A stretch of 64,000 nt of DNA from a virus (lineage: Duplodnaviria; Heunggongvirae; Uroviricota; Caudoviricetes): IMG/VR virus record IMGVR_UViG_3300012983_000030; one strand, 5' to 3'. A program made the position numbers and the translations under genes. Shown here piece after piece: positions 23,631 to 49,474 of the stretch. The notes below the pieces were generated by a model. The model was not told where the DNA came from and made no database searches. It was given only the letters and a program-made list of their open reading frames with translations. Numbering within the stretch: the first letter of the stretch is position 1; each line of letters opens with the position of its first letter.

Positions 23631-23643
23631 TTTTTTTTTTTCA

Positions 23644-23735: not shown

Positions 23736-23737
23736 AT

Positions 23738-23814
23738 GGTCCCGTCGTCTAGCGGCCTAGGACATCTCCCTTTCACGGAGAAGATCACGAGTTCGAATCT
23801 CGTCGGGATCACCA
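23738..23814 (+). tRNA. tRNA-Glu(TTC): tRNA-Glu (anticodon TTC)
   Basis: Acceptor GGTCCCG/CGGGATC, anticodon arm TCTCC-CTTTCAC-GGAGA, CCA encoded. Confidence 0.65.
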
Positions 23815-23867
23815 GTTTACTATATACTTTGTTCTAAAAGGTAGATAAATCTTCTAGGACATTAAGT

Positions 23868-24386: not shown

Positions 24387-24407
24387 TTCTTATATAAGTA
24401 ATTTTAA

Positions 24408-24481
24408 GCCGAATTAGTTAAATGGTATAACAGTTGACTTGTAATCATCTATTGGAAGTTCGATTCTTTCATTCGGCACCA
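24408..24481 (+). tRNA. tRNA-Thr(TGT): tRNA-Thr (anticodon TGT)
   Basis: Acceptor GCCGAAT/ATTCGGC, D-stem GTTA/TAAC, anticodon loop CTTGTAA, CCA encoded. Confidence 0.6.
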
Positions 24482-24486
24482 TTTAT

Positions 24487-24563
24487 TGGTCGGTAGCTCA
24501 GGTGGTTAGAGCACAGCTCTGATAAAGCTGGGGTCGCAAGTTCGAGTCTCGCTCGGCCAACCA
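24487..24563 (+). tRNA. tRNA-Ile(GAT): tRNA-Ile (anticodon GAT)
   Basis: D-arm TAGCTCAGGTGGTTAGAGC, anticodon arm CAGCT-CTGATAA-AGCTG, CCA encoded. Confidence 0.7.
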
Positions 24564-24574
24564 TTTTAGTTTAT

Positions 24575-24649
24575 TGGGATGTAGCACAGTGGTAGTGCAA
24601 TCGGCTGTTAACCGATTGGTCGGGGGTTCGAATCCCTCCATCCCAGCCA
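24575..24649 (+). tRNA. tRNA-Asn(GTT): tRNA-Asn (anticodon GTT)
   Basis: Acceptor TGGGATG/CATCCCA, anticodon arm ATCGG-CTGTTAA-CCGAT, CCA encoded. Confidence 0.7.
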
Positions 24650-24672
24650 AATTTTAAAAGGAGTGTTATATA

Positions 24673-24858
24673 ATGGCGATAGAAAAGAAAAAGAAATCTT
24701 TTGAAGAAATAATGTTTGCAAAACGCTGGGCAAAGAGAATGAAATTAATGCCAAGTTTTCATTTATTAAAAAGTACAGTAGGTAAAGCTCCGGCTTGTAA
24801 TACAAATACTACTAAAAAAGAAGTAACATTACAAGTGGCTAGTAAAAAGAAAAAATAA
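24673..24858 (+). CDS. small basic protein (hypothetical)
   Basis: Shine-Dalgarno AAAGGAG seven nt upstream; 61 aa, Lys-rich; a terminator follows. Confidence 0.35.
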   Translation: MAIEKKKKSFEEIMFAKRWAKRMKLMPSFHLLKSTVGKAPACNTNTTKKEVTLQVASKKKK

Positions 24859-24898
24859 TCAAATTTTTGTTTTACTTTTAAAAAATTTAGTATATATT

Positions 24899-24933
24899 AA
24901 AAGTGTTCTTAAAAAATATAGGAACACTTTTTT
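24899..24933 (+). terminator. rho-independent terminator
   Basis: Hairpin AAGTGTTC...GAACACTT followed by a T-run. Confidence 0.55.
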
Positions 24934-24951
24934 AAAATTATTATTTAAGAA

Positions 24952-25038
24952 GGGCTTGTGGCGGAACAGGTAGACGCTGCAGACTTAAAATCTGTTGTCC
25001 GCAAGGACGTGCCGGTTCGATTCCGGCCTAGCCCACCA
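24952..25038 (+). tRNA. tRNA-Leu(TAA): tRNA-Leu (anticodon TAA), type II; second copy
   Basis: Anticodon arm GCAGA-CTTAAAA-TCTGT, variable-arm hairpin GTCCGCAAGGAC, T-arm CCGGTTCGATTCCGG, CCA encoded. Confidence 0.6.
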
Positions 25039-25056
25039 TTTAATGAAAGATGCTAA

Positions 25057-25296
25057 ATGCAAAAATGTAAAATACGATTACAAAATGATATAGAATGGGA
25101 AGAATATGAAAATGAACAAAATGTTCATCCTATGATATTAGTACAATCGTGGGTAGAAAAGCATCCTGAATGGTATGCAAAAAGTGTAGTTTTAGATGGT
25201 GATAGAGTATTATTTGTGGAAGTTTTAGATGAAGATATAATTCGTACTTTTCAAGTTACAGTGACATTTTCATTTAAAACGGTTGAAATAAGTTAA
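25057..25296 (+). CDS. hypothetical protein
   Basis: 79-aa ORF with a weak Shine-Dalgarno site. Confidence 0.3.
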   Translation: MQKCKIRLQNDIEWEEYENEQNVHPMILVQSWVEKHPEWYAKSVVLDGDRVLFVEVLDEDIIRTFQVTVTFSFKTVEIS

Positions 25297-25303
25297 TCTT
25301 ATG

Positions 25304-25419
25304 CGAGAAGTAGCTCAGTCTGGTAGAGCACGTATTTGTATTTAGTCCTAAATACGTACAGCATTATATTTTTTTGCTTGGTAAGCACGTGGTCATTGGT
25401 TCGAATCCAATCTTCTCGC
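25304..25419 (+). ncRNA. tRNA-like gene with a canonical 5' half and T-arm but an extra internal segment of about 42 nt
   Basis: 5' CGAGAAG-TA-GCTCAGTCTGGTAGAGC, T-arm ATTGGTTCGAATCCAAT, acceptor 3' CTTCTCG. The insert holds a 7-bp hairpin (CGTATTT/AAATACG) and a T-run. AGCACGT recurs on both sides of the insert. Confidence 0.4.
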
Positions 25420-25442
25420 ACTTTTTTAGAAAGGAAACATTA

Positions 25443-25700
25443 ATGAAATTATCTAAATCTGAAATTGAAAGAAAAGTAAAAGAAATATTAAGTGAAGTTT
25501 TAGTAGCACCTAAAGAATCAATTACTTTAAATGCAAATTTGGCACATGATTTAGGAGCAGATAGTTTAGATAATGTTGAAATAGTAATGTATTTAGAAGA
25601 AGAATTTGGGTATATTATTCCAGATGCGGTTACAGAAAAATTAGAAACAGTAGAAGATATTATTAATTATATAGAAGAAAGAGAAAAAAATGAAGTCTAA
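25443..25700 (+). CDS. acpP: acyl carrier protein
   Basis: Classic phosphopantetheine-attachment motif LGADSLDNVEIVMYLEEEFG. Shine-Dalgarno AAAGGAAA. The upstream part of the listed ORF (from 25374) overlaps a tRNA-like gene and is not coding. Confidence 0.7.
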   Translation: MKLSKSEIERKVKEILSEVLVAPKESITLNANLAHDLGADSLDNVEIVMYLEEEFGYIIPDAVTEKLETVEDIINYIEEREKNEV

Positions 25701-25891
25701 AAAAAATGACAATAACAGTTAAAATTCCAAAACCAAGGGATTTTAATTTAATAAATGCTCAAATAAAAGGATTGTTAAGAACAAAAGTAATTAGAAATAA
25801 AAAGAAAGACGTAAAAAAATATAATTGGAAAAAAGATATGTCTTATTATTTAAGTATTTTAACAATAAAGTATTTTAATAATAAGACATAT

Positions 25892-25968
25892 GCCTGATTA
25901 GCTCAGTCTGGTAGAGCATCTCGTTTACACCGAGAGGGTCGGCAGTTCGAACCTGTCATCAGGTACCA
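25892..25968 (+). tRNA. tRNA-Val(TAC): tRNA-Val (anticodon TAC)
   Basis: D-arm TAGCTCAGTCTGGTAGAGC, anticodon arm TCTCG-TTTACAC-CGAGA, CCA encoded. Confidence 0.7.
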
Positions 25969-26108
25969 TTTTTAATTTTAACTTCTTGTGGTGTAAGCGA
26001 TAGGTTTAATAATACTATAGCTCTTTTATTAAATCCTAACGGTAGTAGCTTAATTCCCACTAAGGTTTAGGTACAAGTGCAAGTCTTGTCAAGAAGAACA
26101 TTTTTTAT

Positions 26109-26188
26109 GGGGTGTTAAATCTGGTTCTAGAACAGATTGCTTAGGATGTAGGTCCAAGATAACGTGTGAAAATCATGTGGCCCCGCCA
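26109..26188 (+). ncRNA. non-canonical tRNA-like or structured RNA of about 80 nt (GGGGTGT...GGCCCCGCCA)
   Basis: Terminal helix with a CCA-like end followed by a T-run; internal palindromic hairpin AATCTGGTTCTAGAACAGATT; no canonical T-loop. Confidence 0.25.
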
Positions 26189-26277
26189 TTTTTTATAATA
26201 TTAAATATAATATTGTTTTACTTTCTAAATAATGTATATTAAATAATAAAAGTTGAAATTATTTAGAAAGGTTTAAA

Positions 26278-26445
26278 ATGACATATCAATATTATTCCAG
26301 AAAAGAATTACAAGAAATTTATAATACATCACAAAAGACAGAAAATCTCACATTTTCAACGTTTTATATTAGAGTACATCAATTAAATTGGTCTATTGAA
26401 AAAGCATTAACTTATTATGTAAAACCATTAAAAAGGAGAAAATAG
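26278..26445 (+). CDS. small hypothetical protein
   Basis: 55-aa ORF whose stop abuts the start of the next gene. Confidence 0.25.
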   Translation: MTYQYYSRKELQEIYNTSQKTENLTFSTFYIRVHQLNWSIEKALTYYVKPLKRRK

Positions 26446-26622
26446 ATGGCAAACTCTAGACAAGAATATAACTATGAGATTTTAAAAGTTCTGAAAGAAA
26501 ATATTAAAAAATATCCAGATTATAGATTTATCCAATTACTTTGGGCATTAAATATTATCGATGGCTCAGACAAGTTTTATGAAGAATCGAAAGAAACTTT
26601 AGATTATATAAAAGATAAATAA
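26446..26622 (+). CDS. small hypothetical protein
   Basis: Shine-Dalgarno AAAGGAG upstream; 58 aa. Confidence 0.3.
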   Translation: MANSRQEYNYEILKVLKENIKKYPDYRFIQLLWALNIIDGSDKFYEESKETLDYIKDK

Positions 26623-26700
26623 AAAATATTATTCCTGTTTTACTTTTTTATAAATTCATAGTATATAAAAAGTATTCTATAAATAAAAAAGGAGAAATTT

Positions 26701-28266
26701 ATGAATACTTATATTGATGTTTTAGGTTTAGATAAAAATCACACTGAAATTAAACCAGCTCGTGTAAAGACAAATAGTTTTATCAAAGCTCAAACTAATA
26801 AAACGTTTACTGAAAACGGGGCTTTGACTAATGCTTCTTCTTTATCTAAAATTGTTGATTGGTTTTTTCATGGAGCTGCTCTTCGTAAAGCTGAAGAAAA
26901 ACGTATTTTAAATTTATTCACAGATGCATTTAAAGAGAATCCTACTAGTGCTTTACGTATTTTATTTTATATTCGTGATATTCGCGGTGGACAAGGCGAA
27001 CGTCGTACTTTTAGAATTTGTTTGCAATGGCTTGGAAATTATGAAGCAGAATGGTTATCAAAAAATCTATCATTGATTTTTGAATATGGTAGATGGGATG
27101 ATTACTTTGTATTATTTGATACTAAAATTGCTAATACAGTAATTGATTTCATTGGAAGCCAACTTGAAAAAGATTTGAAACATCATGTTAATAATGAAAT
27201 AAGTAATCTTTCGTTGTTAGCAAAATGGATGCCTTCTGAAGCAAGTGTTAAGTATGAAACAAAAAAATATTATAATGCTTTACTTAAAACTGGTAAATTT
27301 GGTACAAAACGTAATTATCGTAAAGCAATCAGTATTTTAAGAAAAGACTTAGATATTGTTGAAAGAAAATTATCTGCTAAAGAATACTCTAATATTGATT
27401 ATGAAAAATTACCTTCATATGCAATGTTAAAATATTCTAAGCCTCGTGTTTATAATGGTATGGAAGGTAGCTTTTTAAGAAATGATAAAAAGCGTTTTTC
27501 TGAATACTTAGATAAAGTAAATAAAGGTGAAACAAAAATAAACGCTAAGACTTTATATCCATACGATTTAGCACGTGAATATACTGATAATCTTTATTGG
27601 AAGTGTACTTATAAAAAATCTGAGTTAAATGCTACTATTGAAGCTCAATGGAAAGCATTACCAGATTATGTTCCAGAAATAAACGGATTAGTAGTATGTG
27701 ATACTTCTGGTTCAATGAATGGTTTGCCTATGGCAGTAGCTATGTCTTTAGCAGTTTATATTGCAGAAAGAAATAAATCTGAAATTTGGAAAAATTATGT
27801 AATACCATTTTCATCTTCAGCTAAATTTATGGAAGTATCTGGTGAAACACTTCTTGAAAAATTAATATCAATATATACTGGTGATTGTAGTAATACAAAT
27901 TTACAAGCAGTATTTGATTTAATTTTAAATAGAGCTAAGGCAGCAAATGTATTGGCAGAAGACATGCCAAAACAATTGTTGATTATAAGTGATATGGAAT
28001 TTGATTCTACTTCATTTGGATATACAAATTATGAAAAAATTAAACATAAGTATAAAGAGAGTGGATATGTTTTACCAAAATTAGTTTGGTGGAATGTAGA
28101 CAGTAGAAATACACAAACTCCAGTTACTATTGATGATAAAAATAATTTGTTATTGTCTGGATCATCTCCTTCTTGCTTAAAAGTAGCTTTATCTGGAGAG
28201 TTTGATATAGTTGAAACAATAAATAAAATTATTGAACAAGAACGATATAGTTGTATAAATTATTAA
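26701..28266 (+). CDS. DUF2828-like protein with a C-terminal von Willebrand A (MIDAS) domain
   Basis: MIDAS motif VVCDTSGSMNG; N-terminal region ILFYIRDIRGGQGERR; 521 aa. Confidence 0.5.
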   Translation: MNTYIDVLGLDKNHTEIKPARVKTNSFIKAQTNKTFTENGALTNASSLSKIVDWFFHGAALRKAEEKRILNLFTDAFKENPTSALRILFYIRDIRGGQGERRTFRICLQWLGNYEAEWLSKNLSLIFEYGRWDDYFVLFDTKIANTVIDFIGSQLEKDLKHHVNNEISNLSLLAKWMPSEASVKYETKKYYNALLKTGKFGTKRNYRKAISILRKDLDIVERKLSAKEYSNIDYEKLPSYAMLKYSKPRVYNGMEGSFLRNDKKRFSEYLDKVNKGETKINAKTLYPYDLAREYTDNLYWKCTYKKSELNATIEAQWKALPDYVPEINGLVVCDTSGSMNGLPMAVAMSLAVYIAERNKSEIWKNYVIPFSSSAKFMEVSGETLLEKLISIYTGDCSNTNLQAVFDLILNRAKAANVLAEDMPKQLLIISDMEFDSTSFGYTNYEKIKHKYKESGYVLPKLVWWNVDSRNTQTPVTIDDKNNLLLSGSSPSCLKVALSGEFDIVETINKIIEQERYSCINY

Positions 28267-28288
28267 GTTCTAATAAAAAGTTTAGAGT

Positions 28289-28462
28289 CACCAAAAAACA
28301 TACAGCAGACACTATATGAAAAATATTTGTATTTAACATAGGTCGGTATTGTTTAGATAGTTAAGATTTGTTCTGATTATCAATGAGTGACAATACGAGA
28401 TGAGGACCCGGATGCGTTTTTTGTTAAGCGTGACTCTAAAGCGGGTCCTCATTTATTTTAAA
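28289..28462 (+). ncRNA. structured non-coding element with nested inverted repeats, including a GC-rich hairpin with T-run
   Basis: Outer inverted repeat TTTAGAGTCAC...GTGACTCTAAA (11 bp, 130 nt apart); inner GATGAGGACCCG...CGGGTCCTCAT followed by TTTATTTT. Confidence 0.3.
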
Positions 28463-28473
28463 AGGAATATAAA

Positions 28474-29025
28474 TTGAAAAAGTATAAAACAAAAATAAAA
28501 AATTTAAAAAATACAATAAATAATACTTCAAAAGAACTTGCCTGGAATGTAGACATAGCTTTTGCTGAAATGTTATATCCAGTTATTAAACAGTTTAAGA
28601 AAGATGCATTAAAACACATTGATTTTTCACAATATGGTATGTATAAATATGAAAAAATATTATGTAAATATTTAAAAAATAAAAAAGTGTATGAATATTT
28701 TCATAATAAAGGTAAAACTAGATTTGAAAATAAACTCAATGAATTAGAAGATTGTTTGAATGATATTTGTATAGAAGATACTAAAGAACACAGAACAAAA
28801 TGGAATTTAAAAGAATTATTAGAAGTAAAATATAATCATATTCCTATTAAAAAACCAAATGTTGGATTATTATATCGTATGGAAATCAAGCCAGAATATA
28901 AAGAAAATGATATAAAAAATACAAAAATAATACAATATAATGCAAAGATACTTAAAAAATGCTATAAATGGCGAAAAAAATGCTTATATTGGTTTATTGA
29001 TAATTTACATATTTTATGGTGGTAA
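28474..29025 (+). CDS. hypothetical protein
   Basis: 183-aa ORF. Confidence 0.4.
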   Translation: MKKYKTKIKNLKNTINNTSKELAWNVDIAFAEMLYPVIKQFKKDALKHIDFSQYGMYKYEKILCKYLKNKKVYEYFHNKGKTRFENKLNELEDCLNDICIEDTKEHRTKWNLKELLEVKYNHIPIKKPNVGLLYRMEIKPEYKENDIKNTKIIQYNAKILKKCYKWRKKCLYWFIDNLHILWW

Positions 29026-29028
29026 AAA

Positions 29029-29313
29029 ATGGATATTGTTACCTTAATGAAGTTACATAAAACTACTTTTAAAAATAAAGAATTATTAGATACAACTAAT
29101 GAATGCGCATGCTGTTCTTGTAATCATTTTTTAAAAACTTCAGACATTAAAGAATGGACAGATAATGCTTTAACTGCAATATGTCCATTATGTGGAGTAG
29201 ATGCTATAATTCCTATAACTGTTGAAAATCCTATAACTGAAGATGATTTGGAAAAATTATATAAATATTATTTTACTAATTTAGAAAAAGAATTTAAAAA
29301 TAATAAAAAATAA
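29029..29313 (+). CDS. hypothetical Cys-rich protein
   Basis: CACCSC...CPLC pattern. Confidence 0.4.
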   Translation: MDIVTLMKLHKTTFKNKELLDTTNECACCSCNHFLKTSDIKEWTDNALTAICPLCGVDAIIPITVENPITEDDLEKLYKYYFTNLEKEFKNNKK

Positions 29314-29510
29314 CAGTTCTATAAAACATGATGAATATTTTAGTGACATATTTTTACCCTTATTATCAACAACCTATAAACGGTTGATGGGTAGTTATTA
29401 CTTAAAATATTATCATAAGTAGGAAGTGCCCATCAAAAGAAATTTTGTGGGTATTTTTTTATTTTTGTGTTTTACATTTATTATTTTAGGTATTATATTT
29501 ATATTGTTTT

Positions 29511-29587
29511 CGGAATGTAGCTCAGCCTGGTAGAGCGCTAGTTTTGGGTACTAGATGTCGTGAGTTCAAGTCTCGCCATTCCGACCA
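29511..29587 (+). tRNA. tRNA-Pro(TGG): tRNA-Pro (anticodon TGG)
   Basis: Acceptor CGGAATG/CATTCCG, anticodon arm CTAGT-TTTGGGT-ACTAG, CCA encoded. Confidence 0.7.
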
Positions 29588-29592
29588 TTTAA

Positions 29593-29678
29593 GGGTGAGT
29601 CGCATAGAGGCTTATTGCAGCGGACTGTAAATCCGCCGTCTTCGGACATCGGTGGTTCAAATCCATCCTCACCCACCA
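29593..29678 (+). tRNA. tRNA-Tyr(GTA): tRNA-Tyr (anticodon GTA), type II
   Basis: Acceptor GGGTGAG/CTCACCC, anticodon arm GCGGA-CTGTAAA-TCCGC, long variable arm, CCA encoded. Confidence 0.7.
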
Positions 29679-29682
29679 TTAT

Positions 29683-29756
29683 TGGAGGATCGTCTAAAGG
29701 TAGGACAACGCACTTTGACTGCGTTAATATTGGTTCGATTCCAGTTCCTCCAGCCA
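29683..29756 (+). tRNA. tRNA-Gln(TTG): tRNA-Gln (anticodon TTG)
   Basis: Acceptor TGGAGGA/TCCTCCA, anticodon arm ACGCA-CTTTGAC-TGCGT, CCA encoded. Confidence 0.65.
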
Positions 29757-29776
29757 TTTTTTAATAAAGGGGGTTA

Positions 29777-30812
29777 TATGCGAACAGTAGGCACGTCTGT
29801 ATATGGATTAATTTGTCCAATTTTTAAAGAAGGTGATGATTTATGCCAAAAAATTTGTGATACACTTTTAAATAGTGAATTAGAAATAAATGATAGAGAT
29901 ATTTTAGGTATTACAGAATCTGTGGTCGCTAGAACTGAAGGAAATTATGTTACTGTCGATGAAGTAGCAGAATCAGTTAAAAAGTTATTTAATAATCCAA
30001 TAGATATTTTAGTATATAATCCGATTTATTCTCGTAATAGATTCGCAATGATTTTAAAAGGCATTGCAAGAGCAGTTACAGGAACTGTCTATATAACAAT
30101 GCTTAATATTGATGAAGTTGGTAATGTATTACAAAATCACCCTTTTACTGGTTTGAATTATGATGAATATTATAAATCAATTGTTGAAGCAGAAGGTAAA
30201 AAGTGTTATATTATATATCAAAATGAATCAGTAGGTTATTTTGATAATGTAATAGATTGTCAAATACATCAAAATACATTCGATGTAACATTAAAAGACA
30301 TTTGTTCAGATAAATGCGAATATGGACTTTATGGTTCAAATAAAGCAACAGAAGAAAAATTAAAGTTATTTCCATCTAAAAAATTTGCTCAAGAACTTAT
30401 TAGTAATATTCAAATTACTATTTATGGCAAAGTCGGTAAGAAAATTGAAGTAATGGTATATGGGGATGGTTGTTTTAAAGACCCTGTTGGTGGAATATGG
30501 GAATTAGCAGACCCTGTTGTAAGTCCTGCTTATACAGATGGATTAAATGGAACTCCTAATGAGTTGAAACTCAAATATTTAGCAGATAATGATTATAAAG
30601 ATTTGAGTGGAGACGAATTAACAAATGCTATTAAACAAAGCATTAAAACAAAAGATAAAAATCTTGTTGGCAACATGGCATCACAAGGAACAACACCGAG
30701 AAGATTAACAGATTTATTAGGTTCTTTAATGGATTTAACATCTGGAAGTGGTGATAAAGGTACACCTGTTGTTTATGTCAAAGGTTATTTTGATAATTTG
30801 AGTACTTATTAA
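29777..30812 (+). CDS. CofE-like (F420-0:gamma-glutamyl ligase family) amino-acid ligase-like protein
   Basis: ILGITESVVARTEGNYV resembles the CofE active-site strand. Shine-Dalgarno AAGGGGG. The start was moved from 29652 because the upstream part overlaps tRNAs. Confidence 0.45.
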
Positions 30813-30822
30813 GGAGGTCTTA

Positions 30823-31026
30823 ATGAAATTAAAGTATATAATACTTTTTATTTTGATTATTTTATTGTTAATGGCTTGTTCTCATGAAAATACTTCTTTA
30901 GATTTAGATAAAGAATTACGTTGTCAAGGTTATATTCGCACTGATTATACTGAAGAAGAAATTTTAAATGAATATTCAAATGTACATGAATGCATACAAT
31001 ATAATAAAAAATTTTATTGCTATTAA
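30823..31026 (+). CDS. small lipoprotein
   Basis: Signal peptide followed by a lipobox (LLLMAC); 67 aa. Confidence 0.4.
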   Translation: MKLKYIILFILIILLLMACSHENTSLDLDKELRCQGYIRTDYTEEEILNEYSNVHECIQYNKKFYCY

Positions 31027-31072
31027 TTTTCTGCTTTTAATTTAATGTAAAATTTGATATATAAATAAATAT

Positions 31073-31150
31073 GCGTCGGTAGCTCAGCCCGGTTAGAGCT
31101 GTCCGCTCATAACGGATAGGTCGTTGGTTCGAATCCAGCCCGACGCACCA
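31073..31150 (+). tRNA. tRNA-Met(CAT): tRNA-Met/Ile2 (anticodon CAT); second CAT tRNA
   Basis: Acceptor GCGTCGG/CCGACGC, D-arm TAGCTCAGCCCGGTTAGAGC, anticodon loop CTCATAA, CCA encoded. Confidence 0.65.
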
Positions 31151-31151
31151 A

Positions 31152-32330
31152 TTATAATAAATTTAAATTAACAATACAAAGTACTAGCTTTTCATTTGTT
31201 TCAACACTACTCTCTAAAGCCCTAGCTAGTACTTTTTTATTTATATCATACCATTTCTTTTTTCTTGCAATTCCTGGAATAGATGATAATACTAATTTAT
31301 CACCTCTTTGTATTTTTCCAATTACTCTTACTAATACCCGTCCAGACAATGCAATTTTACAAGGATTTTCATAATCATTATTACTATTTAAGATAAAACC
31401 AGGTTGACTTGAAATTACTGCAATAGGATCTGAAGAAGCAATGGATATTTCACTATTTTTGCCTATTTTGACTAAAGTTCCAGCAGGATAATTTTTATCT
31501 GCTTCATAAATTTCTGCTAAATCTGCATATTGGGCATATAATGCTGTACCTTTAATAATACTAGAAAAAGTTTTAACGCCTGCTATTGTCTCATCACCAG
31601 TCTTATGAACAACGGCACTGTCATTAGCTTTTCCTGCAAGAGAAGTTGCCCAATTACTCCAATCCATTTGAGATTGATTGATTTGACCATTAGCAACAAT
31701 TACAAAAAATCTTGCTCTTAAGTTATCACCTTGTACTTTAGCTCCACTTTTATGAATGCCATTTTCTGCTGAAGCGTTAGTCATTTGTTGACGAGCAGTG
31801 GAATATCCTGAAGCAGCTCTATCTGAAAATTCACCATTGGTACCAGCTCCATTCGTACCTGTATTGACAATTACACCTCCAACAGTAGTAGATGTTGCAG
31901 GAACATATCCAGCATTCCCTGCTGTTCCTCCAGCATTAACAATAGCAAGATGGTGAGTATGATCCGGTAAACTTTCTTTATATATTTTTCCTAATTCACT
32001 ATCAGATTTAGCTTGTGTAAGATAACTACCGTCTTTTATTGTTGGTACTTTAAATTTTTTATTAGTCGAATCTACTGCAAATTTATTTGTTTGACCATAT
32101 GTATTTAGGTCAGTGGTATATTCGGCATAAGTACAAGTAAGTAATTTTCCAGTTAATAAATAATTATTAAACAGCTCAGAAAATTGAGCTTCTTGATATT
32201 CTGATCCATCACAAGGTAAACAACCAGAAGGAATATAAGAAGAATTACAAATTACTTTAACAATCTGTCCTATAATTTGTATACCATCTGATGTTCCAAA
32301 TATTTTTTTAGTACCTAAATAAACACCCAT
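31152..32330 (-). CDS. tail fiber / receptor-binding protein
   Basis: Gly/Thr/Asn-rich repeats and a VHKTGDETIAGVKTF-type fiber motif. It lies next to another fiber gene. Confidence 0.55.
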   Translation of the reverse strand: MGVYLGTKKIFGTSDGIQIIGQIVKVICNSSYIPSGCLPCDGSEYQEAQFSELFNNYLLTGKLLTCTYAEYTTDLNTYGQTNKFAVDSTNKKFKVPTIKDGSYLTQAKSDSELGKIYKESLPDHTHHLAIVNAGGTAGNAGYVPATSTTVGGVIVNTGTNGAGTNGEFSDRAASGYSTARQQMTNASAENGIHKSGAKVQGDNLRARFFVIVANGQINQSQMDWSNWATSLAGKANDSAVVHKTGDETIAGVKTFSSIIKGTALYAQYADLAEIYEADKNYPAGTLVKIGKNSEISIASSDPIAVISSQPGFILNSNNDYENPCKIALSGRVLVRVIGKIQRGDKLVLSSIPGIARKKKWYDINKKVLARALESSVETNEKLVLCIVNLNLL

Positions 32331-32332
32331 AA

Positions 32333-32638
32333 TTATTCTTCCAGTTTACGAATTTCTTCTCTCCAAGCTTTACGTGTAGCCTTTTTGATTTCCCATTCTT
32401 CTTCAGTATATTCACCGTCTAAATATTTTTGTCCCCAGTAATCTGCCTCTTTTAACAAATATTTTAATTCTAAAATTCTATTTTTCTTTGCTTCTTCTTC
32501 AGTTGGTTTTGGGGTTTGTATAATTTCATAATATGTATCACAATCTTTAAATTCAGCATGGTTTGCATTACACCAAATAGCATATTTAGCATATTCTTCA
32601 TCAGTTAATTTATCTTTGTATAATTTTTTACCTATCAT
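32333..32638 (-). CDS. hypothetical protein (possibly a fiber assembly factor)
   Basis: 101-aa ORF lying between the two fiber genes. Confidence 0.35.
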   Translation of the reverse strand: MIGKKLYKDKLTDEEYAKYAIWCNANHAEFKDCDTYYEIIQTPKPTEEEAKKNRILELKYLLKEADYWGQKYLDGEYTEEEWEIKKATRKAWREEIRKLEE

Positions 32639-32647
32639 TTCTTTATC

Positions 32648-33790
32648 CTAATAACCGCATGCATACCAATGTACAGGACCACCGTCAGTACCTGAACCAC
32701 TTAGACCATGAATATAAAGAGTTACTTTTGAAGTAGTAACAAAAGTTACTCCTGCATTATTAGCTGTATTACCAACAGTCACTCTCATTTCGTTTGCTTC
32801 ACCGTTTGTTACTTCCAAATTACAAATAAAAGTAGGTTTTTGAGTAAATGCTTTCAAAAACGTTAAAGTATTAGTAGTTCCTCTATACCAAGCTGCTGTT
32901 ACACCGCCTTGTTCAATCCAACCATCAGACCAAACTCTATACCAGTTATTACCAGATTTATAGTTTTGTGTAATAACAGCGACTCTATTTGCGGTAGCAG
33001 AAGAAGTAGTAGTAGCTTTAGCAGTACATTTTGGGAAAGACATATTTACTCCACCTGCTGTATCTACCCAAAGATTTAATTGAGCATACTGCATAGTACC
33101 ATTAATACTTCTACCATGATTTATTCCAAATCTACTAGTACCATCTGTTAGCCAATAACCTTCTACTTTACCATAACGCTGACCTTTATTATCATAAAAA
33201 GTCATACCACTATAAGCAGCAGAGGTAGGCGTTGTCATATGATCTGTAAAATGAGTAGCATAATGAGAAATAGTATCTGCATTTGTTTTAATTACTAATT
33301 TGCCTGTCATGGTATCACCAGCTTTTGCTACTTTAGTATTATTTTCAGTTTTAGTAGCAAATTTGGCGTCAGCTTCTATAATGTTATACTTGGCATTTAA
33401 AAGATAATCTATTTCAGCTTGAGTATATGTATTGACTATTAATGATTCTGCTTCGTCTGTAATACTATATAAAGTATTATCATCTTTAGTAGTTAAAGCA
33501 TCATATTCTGCTCTAGTTCCTACCCAATTTTTTATAATTAAGTTTTTATTTGTTTCTACTGTACCAATTGTTTGGTATTGACTGTTTGTATCTTTTTTGA
33601 TACTATTTACATTAAATTTTGGAATATTATTTAAATCAGTATATTCATTAGTAGTAGCAACTTTACTTAATGAAGAAATGTCTGCTTTTTTATCGATAGC
33701 AGACTTTACGGCTTTTTGAGAAGGAATTATATAATCAGAATTAGCACTAAAAGAAGAATCAGTGTCTAAATTTAAATATTTAGTAGTCAT
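32648..33790 (-). CDS. tail fiber protein
   Basis: N-terminus MTTKYLNLDTDSSFSANSDYIIPSQKAVKSAID, paralogous to the partial fiber gene at 1-639. Confidence 0.6.
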   Translation of the reverse strand: MTTKYLNLDTDSSFSANSDYIIPSQKAVKSAIDKKADISSLSKVATTNEYTDLNNIPKFNVNSIKKDTNSQYQTIGTVETNKNLIIKNWVGTRAEYDALTTKDDNTLYSITDEAESLIVNTYTQAEIDYLLNAKYNIIEADAKFATKTENNTKVAKAGDTMTGKLVIKTNADTISHYATHFTDHMTTPTSAAYSGMTFYDNKGQRYGKVEGYWLTDGTSRFGINHGRSINGTMQYAQLNLWVDTAGGVNMSFPKCTAKATTTSSATANRVAVITQNYKSGNNWYRVWSDGWIEQGGVTAAWYRGTTNTLTFLKAFTQKPTFICNLEVTNGEANEMRVTVGNTANNAGVTFVTTSKVTLYIHGLSGSGTDGGPVHWYACGY

Positions 33791-33915
33791 AACATTAAAT
33801 AATCTCTATATTGAAACTTAATATATTATATATGATATATGAACGATTTAATTTAGTTTTTTGTTTTACTACACAAATATAATAGTATAATATAATTGAA
33901 AATAAGGAGTTTGTC

Positions 33916-34308
33916 ATGACACGAATTAATTTAATATCAACAAAAGAATTATCTGATCAACATTTATTAGCAGAATATAGAGAATTACCTCGTGTAATTA
34001 AAGGTGATTTTAATATTAATAATGCTCCAATAAAATATTGTCTCGGTAAAGGACATATAAAATGGGCAAAGTTACATAGTGCTTATTTAATTCTTAGATA
34101 TGATTTAATTTGTCAAGAAATGAGATATAGAGGTTTTACAGTTAATTATCCTTCGAAAGATTTAATTAAAGAATGGGATGGTGGACACATGTATTTTCCT
34201 TCAAAAGAAGATATAGAAGTAAGCAAAAGACGTTTAATAGAAAAATATAAATTAAAACCTAAATGGTATAAATGGACAAATAGAGAAAAACCAAAATATT
34301 TTTCATAA
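33916..34308 (+). CDS. denV: pyrimidine-dimer DNA glycosylase (T4 endonuclease V / DenV-like)
   Basis: N-terminus [27 protein letters not shown] closely matches T4 endonuclease V ([27 protein letters not shown]), including the catalytic N-terminal Thr and the Glu. Confidence 0.85.
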   Translation: [130 protein letters not shown]

Positions 34309-34492
34309 ATTGTGATTTTTTGCTTTACTTTAAATTTTTATATGTTATTATATTTTTTATCGACTATGATTGGTTAAATAAAGGTTCTAAATAATATGAT
34401 GAAAAGTACGATTAAACATTTTTGGCATTGTTTTTACTTCGCTAGAGGCGATGCCGTTTAATTATACCTTTTTGTCGGTATTATTTGGTTTG

Positions 34493-34525
34493 AGCCTCTG
34501 AGATTTTTCAGAGGCTTTATTTTTT
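34493..34525 (+). terminator. rho-independent terminator
   Basis: Hairpin AGCCTCTGA...TCAGAGGCT followed by a T-run. Confidence 0.6.
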
Positions 34526-34601
34526 GGTTAAGTAGCTCAGTTGGTAGAGCAGGAGACTGAAAATCTTCGTGTCGGCGGTTCGATCCCGTCCTTGACCACC
34601 A
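34526..34601 (+). tRNA. tRNA-Phe(GAA): tRNA-Phe (anticodon GAA)
   Basis: D-arm TAGCTCAGTTGGTAGAGC, anticodon loop CTGAAAA, T-arm GGCGGTTCGATCCCGTC, CCA encoded. Confidence 0.7.
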
Positions 34602-34603
34602 TT

Positions 34604-34677
34604 GCACTGTTGGCAGAGAAGTTATGCATCGGTCTGCAAAACCGACAAGAGAGGTGCAATTCCTCTACAGTGCTCCA
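34604..34677 (+). tRNA. tRNA-Cys(GCA): tRNA-Cys (anticodon GCA)
   Basis: Acceptor GCACTGT/ACAGTGC, anticodon arm TCGGT-CTGCAAA-ACCGA, CCA encoded. Confidence 0.65.
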
Positions 34678-34678
34678 T

Positions 34679-34753
34679 GCGATTGTAGTATAATGGTTAT
34701 TATTCCGGTCTTCCAAACTGAGGATGTGAGTTCGATTCTCACCAGTTGCTCCA
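34679..34753 (+). tRNA. tRNA, isotype uncertain (loop CTTCCAA gives anticodon TCC = Gly, or CCA if read with an 8-nt loop)
   Basis: Acceptor GCGATTG/CAGTTGC with G-U pairs, T-arm GTGAGTTCGATTCTCAC, CCA encoded. The anticodon stem is weak. Confidence 0.45.
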
Positions 34754-34755
34754 AT

Positions 34756-34829
34756 AGGGGTTTAGTTTAATGGTAAAACCTTACTCTCCAAAAGTAAAGA
34801 TGATAGTTCGATTCTGTCAACCCTTGCCA
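34756..34829 (+). tRNA. tRNA-Trp(CCA): tRNA-Trp (anticodon CCA)
   Basis: Anticodon arm TTACT-CTCCAAA-AGTAA, T-arm GATAGTTCGATTCTGTC, CCA encoded. Confidence 0.6.
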
Positions 34830-34848
34830 TAAAATAAAGGAATATAAT

Positions 34849-35328
34849 ATGAAAAGAATAAGTAAAATATTAAGTATAAGTCATCAAGAATTGCAAGATA
34901 TAATTGATGTTTCAAATTCATTATCAGATATTTTAGTTAAATTAGGATACAGTCCAAATGGTGGAACAAATTATGTAACTTTAAAGAATAGATTATATAA
35001 TGAAAATTTTGATTTAAAAAAATTATTAGAAAAGCGTAAAAATAATTATAGAAATATTAAATTAAAAAATGCTGAAGAAGTTTTTATACAAAATTCCATG
35101 TATGCAAGACATAATTTAAAAAGAAGAATATTAAAAGATAATTTAATACTATATAAATGTGCTATTTGTGGGCAAGAACCTATTTGGAATGGAAAAGAAT
35201 TAGTATTAGTTTTAGATCACATAAATGGAATAAATAATGATAATAGATTAGAAAATTTAAGATTTTTATGTCCAAATTGTAATGCTCAACAAGATACTTT
35301 TGCGGCTAAAAATAAAAATAAACATTAA
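34849..35328 (+). CDS. HNH homing endonuclease
   Basis: HNH motif LVLDHINGINNDNRLENLRFLCPNCNAQ and an N-terminal DNA-binding region. It lies inside the tRNA array. Confidence 0.75.
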   Translation: MKRISKILSISHQELQDIIDVSNSLSDILVKLGYSPNGGTNYVTLKNRLYNENFDLKKLLEKRKNNYRNIKLKNAEEVFIQNSMYARHNLKRRILKDNLILYKCAICGQEPIWNGKELVLVLDHINGINNDNRLENLRFLCPNCNAQQDTFAAKNKNKH

Positions 35329-35393
35329 CTTTATATTATTTTTGTCATTTCTACGAATAGAAGTATATATCAGTATATATCTGGTCTATTCTT

Positions 35394-35469
35394 GTGTTCG
35401 TAGCTTAATTGGTAAAGCGCTAGATTGTGGTTCTGGAGGATATGGGTTCAAGTCCCATCGATCACCCCA
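35394..35469 (+). tRNA. tRNA-His(GTG): tRNA-His (anticodon GTG)
   Basis: D-arm TAGCTTAATTGGTAAAGC, anticodon arm CTAGA-TTGTGGT-TCTGG, T-arm TGGGTTCAAGTCCCA, CCA encoded. Confidence 0.6.
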
Positions 35470-35477
35470 ATTATTAT

Positions 35478-35550
35478 ATACCCGTGAGTCAAGTGAAGCA
35501 TACGGTTTCCATCATCGTAAGAGTAGGACATCTTCCTGCCGGGTATGCCA
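35478..35550 (+). ncRNA. tRNA-sized (73 nt) non-canonical tRNA-like gene
   Basis: Perfect acceptor ATACCCG/CGGGTAT plus GCCA. The anticodon-like arm ACGGT-TTCCATC-ATCGT has a CCA triplet with T at position 37. The T-arm GTAGG-ACATCTT-CCTGC lacks the TTCGA consensus, and the D-arm is unclear. Confidence 0.3.
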
Positions 35551-35551
35551 C

Positions 35552-35626
35552 AGAGGTATAGTTCAGTAGTAGAACATTGATCCCCAAAACCAAATGTCGG
35601 GAGTTCGAATCTCTCTGCCTCTGCCA
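35552..35626 (+). tRNA. tRNA, isotype uncertain (anticodon loop CCCCAAA)
   Basis: Acceptor AGAGGTA/TGCCTCT, D-arm TAGTTCAGTAGTAGAAC, T-arm GGGAGTTCGAATCTCTC, CCA encoded. The anticodon stem has one mismatch and position 33 is C. Confidence 0.45.
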
Positions 35627-38873: not shown

Positions 38874-38972
38874 AACTACAAAAAGCAGGTATTATTACAA
38901 TATCTGCTTTACTTTTTTATGTATTTTACATATAATATATAATGAAAAATAATAGTATAAGGGTAAAATACA

Positions 38973-40389: not shown

Positions 40390-40989
40390 TAGGATATACT
40401 ACTAGTACTTTCTTACTGACTATTGCTGTGTATATACATACTTACTGACTTTTGCTACAATATTTATGACACTTTACTTACTACGGCTATATATACATCT
40501 TGTTGTCTGCTTTTGACATCTTCTTCTTATTTTTCTGCTGACCTTCTTACGACTTTTCTATTTTCTTTCTAACTTTTCTCTCTTCTGTTTACTGCTGTTT
40601 ACTGACACCTCCTACTGGGTTTTGACTGGCTGCCCTGGTCCCTATATGTAAAGGGCCCGCCCCCGGGGGTCCCCTGGCTGGGTATGGGTCTTTTTAGGTC
40701 CTTATATGTAGGAATCCATATAATTGCTGTAGGAGTCTGTCTTATATTCTGGTTATAAATTATATATGATTTAGGAATCTGTATTCCTGTGGTCAAAAAA
40801 AGTATGTTTATGTGAGTGTTTCGGAATTAGGTAATCGGTAGTCTAATAGTCTACAAATATTCAGCCTGATTATACAGTCTAATTGTTTATGTATAATCTA
40901 AACCTGTAAATGACAAAAACTAAAGTGAAAGGTAAACATGATGTAAATGAAAAAAATATTTTCTCTGTTATTATAAAACTGTCTCGTTG

Positions 40990-41034
40990 TAAATAAACAA
41001 CCTATTTCTTACTAGAGGTAGGTTGTTTTTATTT
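40990..41034 (+). terminator. terminator hairpin fused to a conserved 20-mer (repeat copy 1)
   Basis: Stem AACAACCTA / TAGGTTGTT and a T-run, followed by ACGTAAAGGCCAAC. Confidence 0.45.
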
Positions 41035-41160
41035 TATACCTATACGTAAAGGCCAACTTAATTATGCAGTCTAATTTATTTAGTATATTCTATAATCATA
41101 AAATATAGGCACAGCTGAAAAGTGTATTTGTATTTTATATTACACATGATTTTTCTCAAG

Positions 41161-41215
41161 ATAACCTATACTAAATAAGTGTAGGTTATTTTTTTATTCG
41201 CACGTAAAGGCCAGC
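41161..41215 (+). terminator. terminator hairpin fused to a conserved 20-mer (repeat copy 2)
   Basis: Stem ATAACCTA / TAGGTTAT and a T-run, followed by ACGTAAAGGCCAGC. Confidence 0.45.
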
Positions 41216-41254
41216 CTAATTGTACAACTTAATATAATTGATATATAATAAAGG

Positions 41255-41289
41255 TATAATAAGAAAACAATAAGTTTAATCTTATTATA
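41255..41289 (+). repeat. stem-loop repeat 1 (stem TATAATAAG/CTTATTATA, loop AAAACAATAAGTTTAAT)
   Basis: Read directly from the sequence; the loop sequence is conserved across all three copies. Confidence 0.6.
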
Positions 41290-41374
41290 GATAAAAAAAT
41301 TATAATAAAGTGTTTTAATGTTCAACTTAATTATAATATATGATCAACTTAATAAATATATATTATAATAAAAC

Positions 41375-41409
41375 TATAATAAAGAAACATTAAGTTTAAC
41401 TTTATTATA
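41375..41409 (+). repeat. stem-loop repeat 2 (stem TATAATAAAG/CTTTATTATA, loop AAACATTAAGTTTAA)
   Basis: Read directly from the sequence; the stem covaries with the loop unchanged. Confidence 0.6.
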
Positions 41410-41500
41410 AAATATAAAAACTTCAAAAAATAAATAAATTAAATGACCAGCCTAATAAAAATAATTGATCAACAAAATATTTATAATATATAATAAAATT

Positions 41501-41533
41501 ATAAATAAAAAACAATACGTTTAATTTATTTAT
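41501..41533 (+). repeat. stem-loop repeat 3 (stem ATAAATAAA/TTTATTTAT, loop AAACAATACGTTTAA)
   Basis: Read directly from the sequence; the stem covaries with the loop unchanged. Confidence 0.6.
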
Positions 41534-41692
41534 AAATACGAATCCTCACCAACCTAAATTATACTATACACCAACCGAATTTATATACCATAATACAACT
41601 ACATATTGAGTATAAAATATGTGGTTATACTATAGTATATATTCGGACAATATACTATAGAATTGTAAACCTAACTTTAAAGGAGATAAATC

Positions 41693-42034
41693 ATGACAAA
41701 AGCAAAATCATTACAAGAAGTTAAACAATTACGTGAAGCAAACAAACCGGCATTGTTTAATATGGCAGTTGCATTAGATGTAGTTAAAACAACTGCTCCA
41801 AAGACTAAAGGGACTGGTGTATTGTCAACCTTTAGTACAGATTTGATTAACTTGTTTAAAGAAGCTGGAGCACAACTTGCAGTCAATCAAGTAGTTGCAG
41901 CATTCAAAGCAAATGATATAGAAGTGACTTCAAAACAAGTTGCAGATAGATGTTGGTTGCTTGCTAAGAAAGGTATCTTAGAGAAAGGCGACGCTAAAGG
42001 TACTTATGTATATAAGAGCGACGCTCAAGCATAG
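41693..42034 (+). CDS. hypothetical protein, first gene downstream of the control region
   Basis: Strong Shine-Dalgarno AAGGAG. The 113-aa product is rich in A/K/V. Confidence 0.5.
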   Translation: MTKAKSLQEVKQLREANKPALFNMAVALDVVKTTAPKTKGTGVLSTFSTDLINLFKEAGAQLAVNQVVAAFKANDIEVTSKQVADRCWLLAKKGILEKGDAKGTYVYKSDAQA

Positions 42035-47857: not shown

Positions 47858-48094
47858 ATACCAGCCGAATAAAAATAAATAACCAACTAAAAATATATAA
47901 TATATAATCCATTCAATAATCATGATGAAGAGTTTTATACTTGAATGTGTAAAATACTTTTCCTTGTGGTTAGGGAAACTACCTTAGCATGTAGTTAAAC
48001 TGCTTGTCCGAGTGGAGTGTGCTTTAATGAGCTCACCAAAAAATTAGAGCACACTCTTTATTTCTAAATGTATAAACCTAAAATGGAGGCAATT

Positions 48095-48382
48095 ATGACA
48101 AAAGAAGTAAAAGTACTTAACGAAAAGCAAGTTAAAGCTTTAGTTAAAGCATATGTTGAATACAAAAAAGCTGAGAACGCTTTTAAGAAACTTAAGGATG
48201 AATTATGTAAAGATATCATTGAAGGCAAACACGAAAGTGATGTCGGATATGTATTGAAAACAACCTCTAAAAGATCTAGCTTAGATAAGACTAGATTGTT
48301 TGAGGATCATCCTGAGATCAACGAAGAAGAGTACCTAACTGAGAAGGAAGTTACTACTATCACAATACAAAACTTAAGATAA
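48095..48382 (+). CDS. hypothetical protein
   Basis: Start at ATG 48095 with a GGAGG site upstream. The ORF track began it at 48068. Confidence 0.4.
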   Translation: MTKEVKVLNEKQVKALVKAYVEYKKAENAFKKLKDELCKDIIEGKHESDVGYVLKTTSKRSSLDKTRLFEDHPEINEEEYLTEKEVTTITIQNLR

Positions 48383-49372: not shown

Positions 49373-49474
49373 CTTGTCCAACTAAATAGAAGGATATGCC
49401 AACCTAATAAAAAAGGTGTATCCTTCTTATACTTTAATTAAAAACCTTAACCACATATAGAAAGGAAATTTAAC

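Follow-up and report, generated by a model that had tools for sequence, protein, structure and literature searches.

The ORF-free gap studied here, located in the genome of a large uncultivated phage, probably contains two tandem and paralogous mini transcription units, A and B, at the head of an array of promoter cassettes, and a GC-rich 22-mer that follows a terminator-like hairpin at two sites would be the front edge of the cassette lying behind it. In each unit, a promoter-like pair of boxes would be followed by a short non-coding stretch, the body, and then by a Rho-independent terminator. The array formed by cassettes U1 to U4 (41202-41692) would drive a small winged-helix gene and a block of ∼20 kb of ORFans, and the two hairpins, T1 and T2, would stop transcripts coming from upstream and thereby insulate the array. 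We propose that RNA polymerase is brought in by the boxes, which would act on it directly as an extended -35 element or through a DNA-binding factor, and that the AT-only hairpins of U1 to U3 sit at the predicted 5' ends of the transcripts. As repeats, the cassettes are also substrates for recombination, and unit B was lost between the 22-mers in one sub-lineage. The repeats, the hairpins and their maintenance, the geometry of the boxes, and the deletion with its polarity are observed in the DNA; we infer promoter and terminator activity, transcript ends, and a protein that reads the boxes.

RESULTS

Phage and genomic context

Positions refer to the window, the whole stretch of DNA that was analyzed, which covers only 64 kb of the phage genome. 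Contigs encoding the protein next to the gap on its upstream side reach 238,861 bp in length, and one related contig in IMG/VR measures 237,323 bp; the source is therefore an uncultivated myophage of ∼239 kb, large and AT rich. The GC content of the window is ∼29%, and that of the region of interest is 25 to 30%, with an abundance of TATA-like strings. Twenty-three tRNA genes are found at 21 to 36 kb. The tail sheath protein shares 25% identity with T4-like gp18, the DnaB-like helicase shares <30% identity with that of any cultured phage, most structural ORFs of the window belong to no PHROG family, and the small downstream ORFs at 42 to 60 kb are ORFans with almost no PHROG matches. The source is not a bona fide T4-type phage.

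The hairpins and the 22-mers are held in an ORF-free gap of 1,303 bp (40390-41692), which is flanked by an ORF of 192/202 aa on the left and by an ORF of 113 aa on the right, both on the + strand, and which stands upstream of the small winged-helix gene and of ∼20 kb of ORFans. Searches of 50,697 GenBank phages with megablast and blastn returned no match to the gap save one AT-rich stretch of 82 nt in Geobacillus virus E3 (E 8e-3), which we judged to be a chance match, and no credible DNA similarity to GenBank phages was found. Rfam gave only tRNAs at the gathering level and nothing credible at the E-value level: a match to the L2 leader was weak (25.9 bits versus a threshold of 37.8), and the miRNA-like matches are explained by a long hairpin. 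Indels led us to reject the idea that the gap is coding; they occur both in a candidate ORF of 65 aa on the minus strand (40599-40796, spanning element X), in which one haplotype, L027, carries a 1-nt indel, and in the putative peptides of the unit A and unit B bodies, which are broken by indels of 3, 4, and 7 nt.

Two terminator-like hairpins, each followed by a 22-mer

T1 (AAACAACCTATTTCTTACTAGAGGTAGGTTGTTT) forms a stem-loop at 40995-41028, with a T-rich tail (TTATTTTATACC) that extends to 41040, and T2 (AAGATAACCTATACTAAATAAGTGTAGGTTATTTT) forms a stem-loop at 41158-41192, with a T-rich tail (TTTATTCGC) that extends to 41201, both on the + strand. The tails, TTATTTTAT and TTTATT, come after stems that end in TTT(T). 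Both hairpins are scored as terminator-like by a pattern scan, and their predicted folding energies are -18.8 kcal/mol (z -5.2) for T1 and -16.6 kcal/mol (z -7.0) for T2. The pairing is kept in relatives: none of the 13 pairs of the T1 stem is broken, three one-sided variants being still paired, and the 15 pairs of the T2 stem show six one-sided variants that still pair and a single broken cell out of 90. Double compensatory changes were not seen within either T1 or T2 among the relatives, and the comparison of the two paralogous hairpins with each other reveals one outer pair that changes from C-G to T-A. With a stable stem-loop, a T-tract, and pairing that is maintained in relatives, T1 and T2 look like intrinsic (Rho-independent) terminators.

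Copy 1 of the 22-mer (ACGTAAAGGCCARCYTAATTRT) lies at 41044-41065 and copy 2 at 41202-41223, both on the + strand. The 22-mer occurs exactly twice in 64 kb, even with three mismatches allowed, whereas 0.02 occurrences are expected by chance and none of 100 shuffled sequences contained as many as two. The two copies are GC rich and share 19 of their 22 bases. The positions, the scan, the folds, and the repeat count thus bear out the description, in an earlier note on this DNA, of two terminator-like hairpins that are each followed by the same GC-rich 20-mer. The partial third copy reported there at 41445 is also real (GACCAGCCTAAT, 41445-41456), and a further partial copy, GTTCAACTTAATTA, which had escaped that note, is located at 41320-41333. 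The previous count of 2.5 copies is right as regards two full copies; what remains is many copies of a box and not one half copy.

Each 22-mer consists of a core, GTAAAGGCCA, and a box, the latter being CAACTTAAT in copy 1 (41054-41062, the distal box of unit B) and CAGCCTAAT in copy 2 (41212-41220, the distal box of U1). Only GTAAAGGCCA is invariant across all copies of the 22-mer in all relatives. The ACGT with which the 22-mer starts varies in relatives (ATGT, GCGT, and GTGT) and was for this reason rejected as the functional core of the 20-mer, and the box part varies mainly at its R and Y positions. The GTAAAGGCCA core lies 11 to 17 nt past the stems of T1 and T2, and its only other site, where it reads GTAAAGGGCC, is in element X (40647), a GC-rich block at 40608-40702; it is absent from U2, U3, and the doublets D1 and D2 described below. 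The promoter reading leaves this core unexplained.

In its 3' half, the 22-mer corresponds to a copy of a 9-mer box, CARYYTAAT. When U1, U2, and U3 are aligned, GGCCAGCCTAATTGT of the 22-mer falls on GTTCAACTTAATTAT in U2 and on GACCAGCCTAATAAA in U3. The box half of the 22-mer aligns in register with the first box of the terminator-less U2 and U3 and recurs before TATAAT elsewhere, which suggests that it belongs to the downstream cassette. We therefore favor the view that the 22-mer marks the upstream border of the promoter cassette behind it and is not an appendage of the terminator. The 22-mer would adjoin a terminator because the duplicated unit consists of promoter, body, and terminator in tandem. 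An exact 19-mer scan of IMG/VR gave no match; the eight loci matched by the 19-mer in JGI metagenomes were all attributed to chance, as they lie in unrelated and mostly GC-richer or coding-like contexts. A pattern scan for element X recovered only the IMG/VR contig that was already known, and none among genome contigs.

The CARYYTAAT box and its doublets

The + strand of the window contains 11 matches to CARYYTAAT, 8 of them within 40875-41448. The gap holds box copies beyond those of the earlier note, at 40862, 40875, 41067, 41225, 41345, 41470, 41550, and 41572, and outside the gap the box is found at 47862/47884 and 49379/49400. With a slightly relaxed pattern, doublets of boxes 12 to 24 nt apart number nine on the + strand and zero on the - strand, whereas Markov-1 controls gave a mean of 1.69 and a maximum of 6. 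Eight of the nine are convincing, all of them intergenic; the spacing is 13 nt in three (unit A, unit B, and U1) and 21 to 22 nt in five (U2, U3, U4, 47862, and 49379). In every one of the eight, a TAnnnT hexamer (TATAAT in five cases) follows the start of the proximal box at 17 to 19 nt. This geometry places the proximal box at about -30, with 8 to 10 bp between the end of the box and the -10 hexamer, and the same box also heads cassettes that have no terminator in front of them.

All cassettes have good -10 hexamers, and the CARYYTAAT box occupies the -35 position where a -35-like hexamer is lacking. Such a hexamer, at a distance of 17 to 18 nt, is present only in U1 (TGTACA) and U3 (TTGATC), where it overlaps the box, both combinations giving 10/12 sigma-70 matches; P-1, P0, U4, D1, and D2 have no 10/12 match. 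Matches of the sigma-70 type are no more frequent in this AT-rich DNA than in shuffled sequences, so TATAAT hexamers by themselves say little; the case for promoters is built on geometry, strand bias, and conservation and not on matches to hexamers. The box would either replace a -35 element or extend one. A search of 10 neighboring ORFs against Pfam gave no match, to MotA/AsiA-type factors or otherwise.

Organization of units and cassettes

From left to right, the gap contains a CT-rich stretch, element X, unit A (∼40862-41043), unit B (41044-41201), and cassettes U1, U2, U3, and U4, all units and cassettes being on the + strand. The promoter-like element of unit A (40862-40897), with 90% pairwise identity across nine haplotypes, is composed of a distal box, CAGCCTGAT (40862-40870), and a proximal box, CAGTCTAAT (40875-40883), spaced by 13 nt, the latter starting 17 nt before TATAAT (40892-40897). 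The unit A body (40898-40994) is non-coding and is the most variable part of the unit, with 76% identity and indels of 3, 4, and 7 nt; it includes a conserved GAAAGG-N5-6-ATG followed by one or two codons and a stop. In unit B, the proximal box, again CAGTCTAAT (41067-41075), precedes two -10-like hexamers, TATATT (41084-41089), which is kept in five of six haplotypes, and TATAAT (41091-41096), which varies. The unit B body (41098-41157) together with T2 would give a two-hairpin RNA of ∼100 nt, and 41098-41200 folds at -26.6 kcal/mol (z -5.0). RNAalifold provided no covariation support for the 5' hairpin of unit B among the relatives, and the bodies of units A and B have no conserved fold. Common to both units are the promoter half, CTGAAARGT, CATGAT, and a stem core, AACCTAT...TAGGTT, which indicates that they are paralogues.

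Cassette U1 (41225-41289) displays the proximal box CAACTTAAT (41225-41233), TATAAT (41244-41249), and an AT-only hairpin (41255-41289). U2 (41320-41409) has boxes at 41323-41331 and 41345-41353, TATAAT at 41364-41369, and its hairpin at 41375-41409, and U3 (41445-41534) starts with the partial copy of the 22-mer mentioned above, followed by the proximal box (41470-41478), TATAAT (41489-41494), and the hairpin (41500-41534). U1 to U3 are ∼120-nt cassettes in register, with spacings of 120 and 125 nt and without a terminator. All 14 pairs of their AT-only hairpin are formed in every unit, 4 of them with compensatory changes on both sides when the paralogous units are compared, against 34 to 50% pairing in slid controls. 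The 5' arm of the hairpin begins 6 to 7 nt after TATAAT, at the predicted start of the transcript, and the U hairpins would then be 5'-terminal stem-loops. U4 and the 5' leader of the first gene (41547-41692) contain boxes at 41550-41558 and 41572-41580, CATAAT at 41589-41594, a long hairpin at 41575-41646, and a Shine-Dalgarno sequence, AAGGAG, at 41680.

Elsewhere in the window, only two cassettes are found, both intergenic and on the + strand. In D1 (47862-47908; nhmmer E 0.011), the boxes CAGCCGAAT and CAACTAAAA are spaced by 22 nt and TATAAT comes 19 nt past the proximal box start; D1 heads a third unit with the same plan as units A and B (47862-48066; z -5.0). The boxes of D2 (49379-49427) are 21 nt apart, and the proximal one is part of a hairpin loop (-17 kcal/mol) located between two ORFs. 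The modular repeat that had been proposed for this DNA, i.e., terminator, 20-mer, promoter, and stem-loop, therefore has to be modified: a repeated modular layout exists, but there is no uniform module of this composition. The actual layout is two mini-units, each with a box promoter, a body of 60 to 100 nt, and a terminator, followed by three terminator-less cassettes of ∼120 nt, each with a box doublet, TATAAT, and an AT-only hairpin.

Conservation among relatives and loss of unit B

The 113-aa protein, used singly or in a profile, recovered only the known IMG/VR contig among viral contigs, and the 202-aa protein recovered none; useful relatives were obtained via homologous proteins and the contigs encoding them. 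The relatives of the 113-aa protein share 97%, 54%, and 55% identity with it, and nine relatives of the 202-aa protein share 80 to 100%. The relatives come from metagenomic assemblies, and several of these contigs stop within the gap; we compared nine distinct whole-gap haplotypes, window included. Conservation of the gap is high for non-coding DNA: pairwise identity reaches 97% in element X, 95% in T1, 94% in copy 2 of the 22-mer, 93 to 94% in U2/U3, and 91% in copy 1 of the 22-mer. The CT-rich stretch at the left end of the gap (40394-40607) is hypervariable, with 43% identity.

Both 22-mers are present in six of the nine haplotypes, namely the window (identical to L019), L022 (identical to L023), L024, L025, L027, and L029. 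The other three haplotypes, L002, L026, and L028, all from runs SRR292779xx, contain one 22-mer and lack exactly the 158-bp segment of unit B (41043-41200), whose endpoints are at the 5' edges of the two 22-mers and are identical in all three. In a neighbor-joining tree built from the rest of the gap, the one-copy haplotypes form a single clade nested among two-copy haplotypes, and the two main clades, which are up to 12% apart, both include two-copy members; the two-copy state is therefore ancestral and has been maintained. These data indicate that one sub-lineage lost unit B through crossover or slippage between the 22-mer repeats, i.e., that the deletion is derived. A single copy in close relatives, which the earlier note had named as evidence against the repeat, is accordingly seen in three of nine haplotypes and in the derived clade only, two copies being kept across a divergence of up to 12%. 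A target-site duplication around a mobile unit B was also considered and is less likely than a duplication of the whole unit, because the homology of the 22-mer copies runs to the left into the terminators and to the right into the second box.

Winged-helix gene and homologous gaps of other phage types

The first gene past the gap (41693-42034, + strand) encodes a protein of 113 aa with a C-terminal winged-helix fold and lies beside the gap in three phage types. The structural model of the protein has a pLDDT of 80 to 87, and its top structural matches are MarR, Fur, IclR, and Z-alpha domains (E ∼0.02 to 0.1). The predicted recognition helix, KQVADRxWLLAK, is invariant across the three phage types while the boxes differ between them, which makes it unlikely that the winged-helix protein reads the boxes. 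In the homologous gap of L001/L004, we found four doublets of a different box (CAAGGYT or CAATGGTGA), 21 to 22 bp apart and confined to the gap, with the proximal box 19 nt before a TATAAT-like hexamer and AT-only hairpins thereafter. The homologous gap of L007 contains repeated units with TTTACT-N17-TATAAT. The theme conserved across these types appears to be a promoter array upstream of the winged-helix gene, with an upstream element that is specific to each type.

DISCUSSION

Alternative explanations

The position of the 20-mer directly behind two hairpins could mean that it is a functional appendage of the terminator, for example, the site of a termination, antitermination, or processing factor. 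Its GTAAAGGCCA core does occur directly after T1 and T2, with element X as the only further site and none in the terminator-less cassettes, and no copy in any haplotype departs from it, in contrast to the variable ACGT next to it. We nevertheless consider this explanation unlikely: terminator-less cassettes are headed, in the same register, by the box that forms the 3' half of the 20-mer, this box also precedes TATAAT at 47862 and 49379, and the other terminator-like hairpins of the window, at 34492, 36852, 38882, and 46813, are not followed by the 22-mer motif. Moreover, T1 and T2 are paralogous, so that a duplication of the whole unit accounts for their common flank. The bodies of units A and B direct attention to another possibility, that the units are genes for small RNAs and that the 22-mer is merely a common promoter-proximal flank. 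In favor of this, a promoter-like element and a strong terminator enclose a body of 60 to 100 nt in each unit, a fold with two hairpins is predicted for the RNA of unit B (z -5.0), and a third unit of the same plan exists at 47862-48066 (z -5.0). Yet conservation is lowest in the bodies (76% in unit A), where indels are numerous, covariation is absent other than in the terminators, and no Rfam family is matched, and unit B is dispensable in one clade, so we hold this to be very unlikely as an account of the region.

Iteron-type replication origins of plasmids and phages contain phased direct repeats, and the boxes could be the iterons of such an origin, with the winged-helix protein as a possible initiator and with transcription possibly priming replication, as in the transcription-primed oriF and oriG of T4. 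The gap resembles an iteron origin in that more than 12 boxes of the same orientation are phased by 13 or 22 bp in 740 bp of AT-rich, non-coding DNA, directly upstream of a winged-helix gene; in addition, the L001/L004 doublets are restricted to the gap, and assemblies of relatives often break there. It differs in that the repeats are tied at a fixed distance of 17 to 19 nt to -10-like hexamers, that doublets are also found, singly, before other genes, at 47862 and 49379, and that all boxes are on the sense strand of genes. Furthermore, the L007 gap has TTTACT-N17-TATAAT units in place of iterons, the adjacent protein is only 113 aa long, and its recognition helix does not covary with the box, being invariant across three types with different boxes. 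Cumulative GC skew shows no turn at 41 kb, which is weak evidence. On balance, an origin seems quite unlikely to us. That the whole pattern is a chance similarity in low-complexity DNA is exceedingly improbable, in spite of the 25 to 30% GC of the region and its many TATA-like strings, given that the 22-mer is GC rich with an expectation of 0.02, that the arrangement is kept in six haplotypes at up to 12% divergence, and that the hairpin z-scores range from -5 to -7.

Our preferred explanation, paralogous mini-units at the head of a cassette array, can be extended into a more ambitious proposal, which joins a promoter class that depends on a phage factor, co-evolved boxes, regulatory RNAs from A, B, and D1, and a separate signal in the core; taken as a whole, we regard it as speculative and somewhat unlikely. 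Under this extended proposal, the promoter class may be of a sigma-appropriation-like or activator-dependent kind, distinct from the TTTACW-N17-TATAAT promoters located upstream. The CAAGGYT box of the sister type has the same geometry, so the box and its factor would have co-evolved, the A, B, and D1 mini-units would be short regulatory RNAs expressed from the box promoter class, and the invariant GTAAAGGCC core, common to element X, would be a separate signal at the protein or RNA level.

Relation to known systems

The closest known analogues are the promoter-early stem-loops (PeSLs) of T4-type phages, composite terminator/promoter cassettes of ∼100 bp (Arbiol et al. 2010, PMC2839356; Comeau et al. 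2014, PMC4122927), to which the present cassettes would be functionally analogous without being family members. The stem-loop of PeSLs is variable in position, being upstream of the promoter, overlapping it, or after the -10 element, and recombination between neighboring cassettes deletes or inserts the intervening DNA (PMC2839356, PMC4122927). Measured promoter and terminator activity and the formation of mini-circles are further characteristics of PeSLs. The likeness lies in a repeated motif of ∼100 bp with a promoter and a stem-loop (here U1 to U3, units A/B, and D2), in the location within non-coding spaces of an ORFan-rich region, in the variable position of the stem-loop, and in indels among relatives that end inside two neighboring cassettes and leave one chimeric cassette, as with unit B. 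However, there is no sequence homology to PeSLs, and the phage is not T4-type. A double CARYYTAAT box stands here in place of a clean -35 element: of the -35/-10 pair at N17 that characterizes the sigma-70 promoters of PeSLs, the -35-like hexamer is found only in U1 and U3. Six cassettes are stacked here in a 1.3-kb gap without ORFs and two more lie in intergenic spaces of the window, in an ORFan-rich block, whereas PeSLs are dispersed in the spaces between ORFans of hyperplastic regions; the stems of the U type are AT only, whereas those of PeSLs are GGGG...CCCC; and the DNA lost between cassettes is a non-coding unit and not an ORFan.

Middle promoters of T4 combine a MotA box centered at -30 with a sigma-70 -10 element, the box being 12 ± 1 bp from the -10 (Hinton 2010, PMC2988021). 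The cassettes resemble them, and the PmSL variant of phage nt-1 (PMC4122927), in having a phage-specific box of 9 to 10 nt about one helical turn upstream of the -10, a box that would here take the place of a canonical -35. In contrast to the 12 ± 1 bp of T4, the interval between box and -10 is 8 to 10 bp here, where start sites are only predicted; the box is always doubled, at a distance of 13 or 21 to 22 bp, and is unrelated to TGCTTtA, and some cassettes have a -35-like TTGATC or TGTACA that overlaps the box.

The A1, A2, and A3 promoters of T7 are tandem strong early promoters, ∼125 bp apart at the start of the early region, and they do not repeat each other and come without hairpins or boxes. 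The three cassettes at spacings of 120 and 125 nt, directly upstream of a long block of small genes, are reminiscent of this arrangement but differ from it in being repeats with hairpins and boxes. T7 PA1 has been named as a strong promoter (PMC2988021).

In itself, the region is an ordinary kind of phage control region, as would be expected, with a few unusual details, and it opens no new question. It offers a natural example, outside T4-type phages, of terminator/promoter cassettes that would act both as a regulatory array and as recombination points at which modules are added or removed, and the nine haplotypes reveal the direction of the module change. It also provides a candidate promoter motif, a double box plus a -10 hexamer, for a ∼239-kb uncultivated lineage without cultured relatives, and it flags three candidate short transcription units. 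As a separate observation, a second promoter type, TTTACW-N16-18-TAWWAT, occurs at intergenic positions of the window (33865, 34324, 35655, 37896, 38908, and 59204).

Conserved and hypervariable segments of the ORF-free gap

The left part of the gap holds two segments of different character. Element X, a GC-rich block of 95 nt (40608-40702), is invariant in 90 of its 95 columns among the nine haplotypes, the window and its close relatives, which differ by up to 12% nearby. The arrangement CCTCCTACTGG-N24-TATAYGTAAAGG(G)CC is common to element X and to the distant L001/L004 phage type, and the core of the element, CTATATGTAAAGGGCC, is similar to copy 1 of the 22-mer, the repeat that follows the terminator-like hairpins, together with its flank. 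Element X has no Rfam family and its fold z-score was 0.1; a coding reading is disfavored because one relative (L027) carries a 1-nt indel. The CT-rich, G-poor stretch immediately 3' of the upstream gene (40394-40607) carries repeats of TTACTGAC and is hypervariable among close relatives, with 43% pairwise identity and numerous indels. Its counterpart in the L001 type is likewise poor in G and contains inverted repeats, GGGGCC...GGCCCC.

A (T)ATACGTA-type palindromic motif is repeated in the homologous gaps, with five copies in L007 (positions 1-800) and two in L001 (3950-4330). By contrast, the 22-mers in the phage type of the window show no conservation of the corresponding ACGT. Many relatives' metagenomic contigs stop within the gap (L003, L005, L006, L008, L020, and L021), with ends that fall in the array of promoter-like cassettes or in the CT-rich stretch. 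This distribution fits assembly breaks driven by repeats or heterogeneity; a physical genome end is a possible alternative.

Unit A, terminator-like stems, and the first downstream gene

Unit A, the mini-unit with terminator-like hairpin T1, contains a start-stop mini-ORF (40925-40950), in which a conserved GAAAGG-N5-6-ATG is followed by one or two codons and a stop; the encoded peptide differs by haplotype (MM*, MI*, or MIK*). The promoter box CAACCTAAT is nearly reproduced in the 5' arms of both terminator-like hairpins, at 40998-41006 (CAACCTATT) and 41162-41170 (TAACCTATA), and both stems may have originated from inverted copies of this box.

The first gene 3' of the gap (41693-42034) is kept beside the gap in three phage types. 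Its 113-aa product belongs to no Pfam or PHROG family; it has a winged-helix fold at its C terminus and includes the invariant helix KQVADRxWLLAK. The leader of this gene forms a long imperfect hairpin (41575-41646), which covers the proximal box and the -10-like hexamer of cassette U4 and accounts for weak miRNA-precursor-like Rfam matches.

Promoter-like sites and tRNA genes outside the gap

Box doublets also occur elsewhere in the window. In the region 47858-48100, one doublet makes up a promoter-like site followed by a 150-nt leader that folds strongly (-46.5 kcal/mol, z -5.0) and is closed, just 5' of an ORF, by a terminator-like hairpin (48014-48057). The true start of this ORF is likely the ATG at 48095, preceded by GGAGG, and the folded leader is a candidate attenuator or small RNA. 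The intergenic region at 49373-49474, 5' of an ATPase-like gene, contains a hairpin (-17.1 kcal/mol, z -5.0) with the proximal box in its loop, which is a composite hairpin/promoter arrangement.

Between two ORFs, at 38882-38953, a terminator-like hairpin is directly followed by promoter-like sites of a second type, TTTACT/TTTACA-N17-TATAAT, also found at 33865, 34324, 35655, 37896, and 59204. Finally, a cluster of 23 tRNA genes spans 21159-35626; an extra 116-nt tRNA-like match at 25304-25419, reported by Rfam and not called by ARAGORN, may represent a degenerate tRNA or one with an intron.
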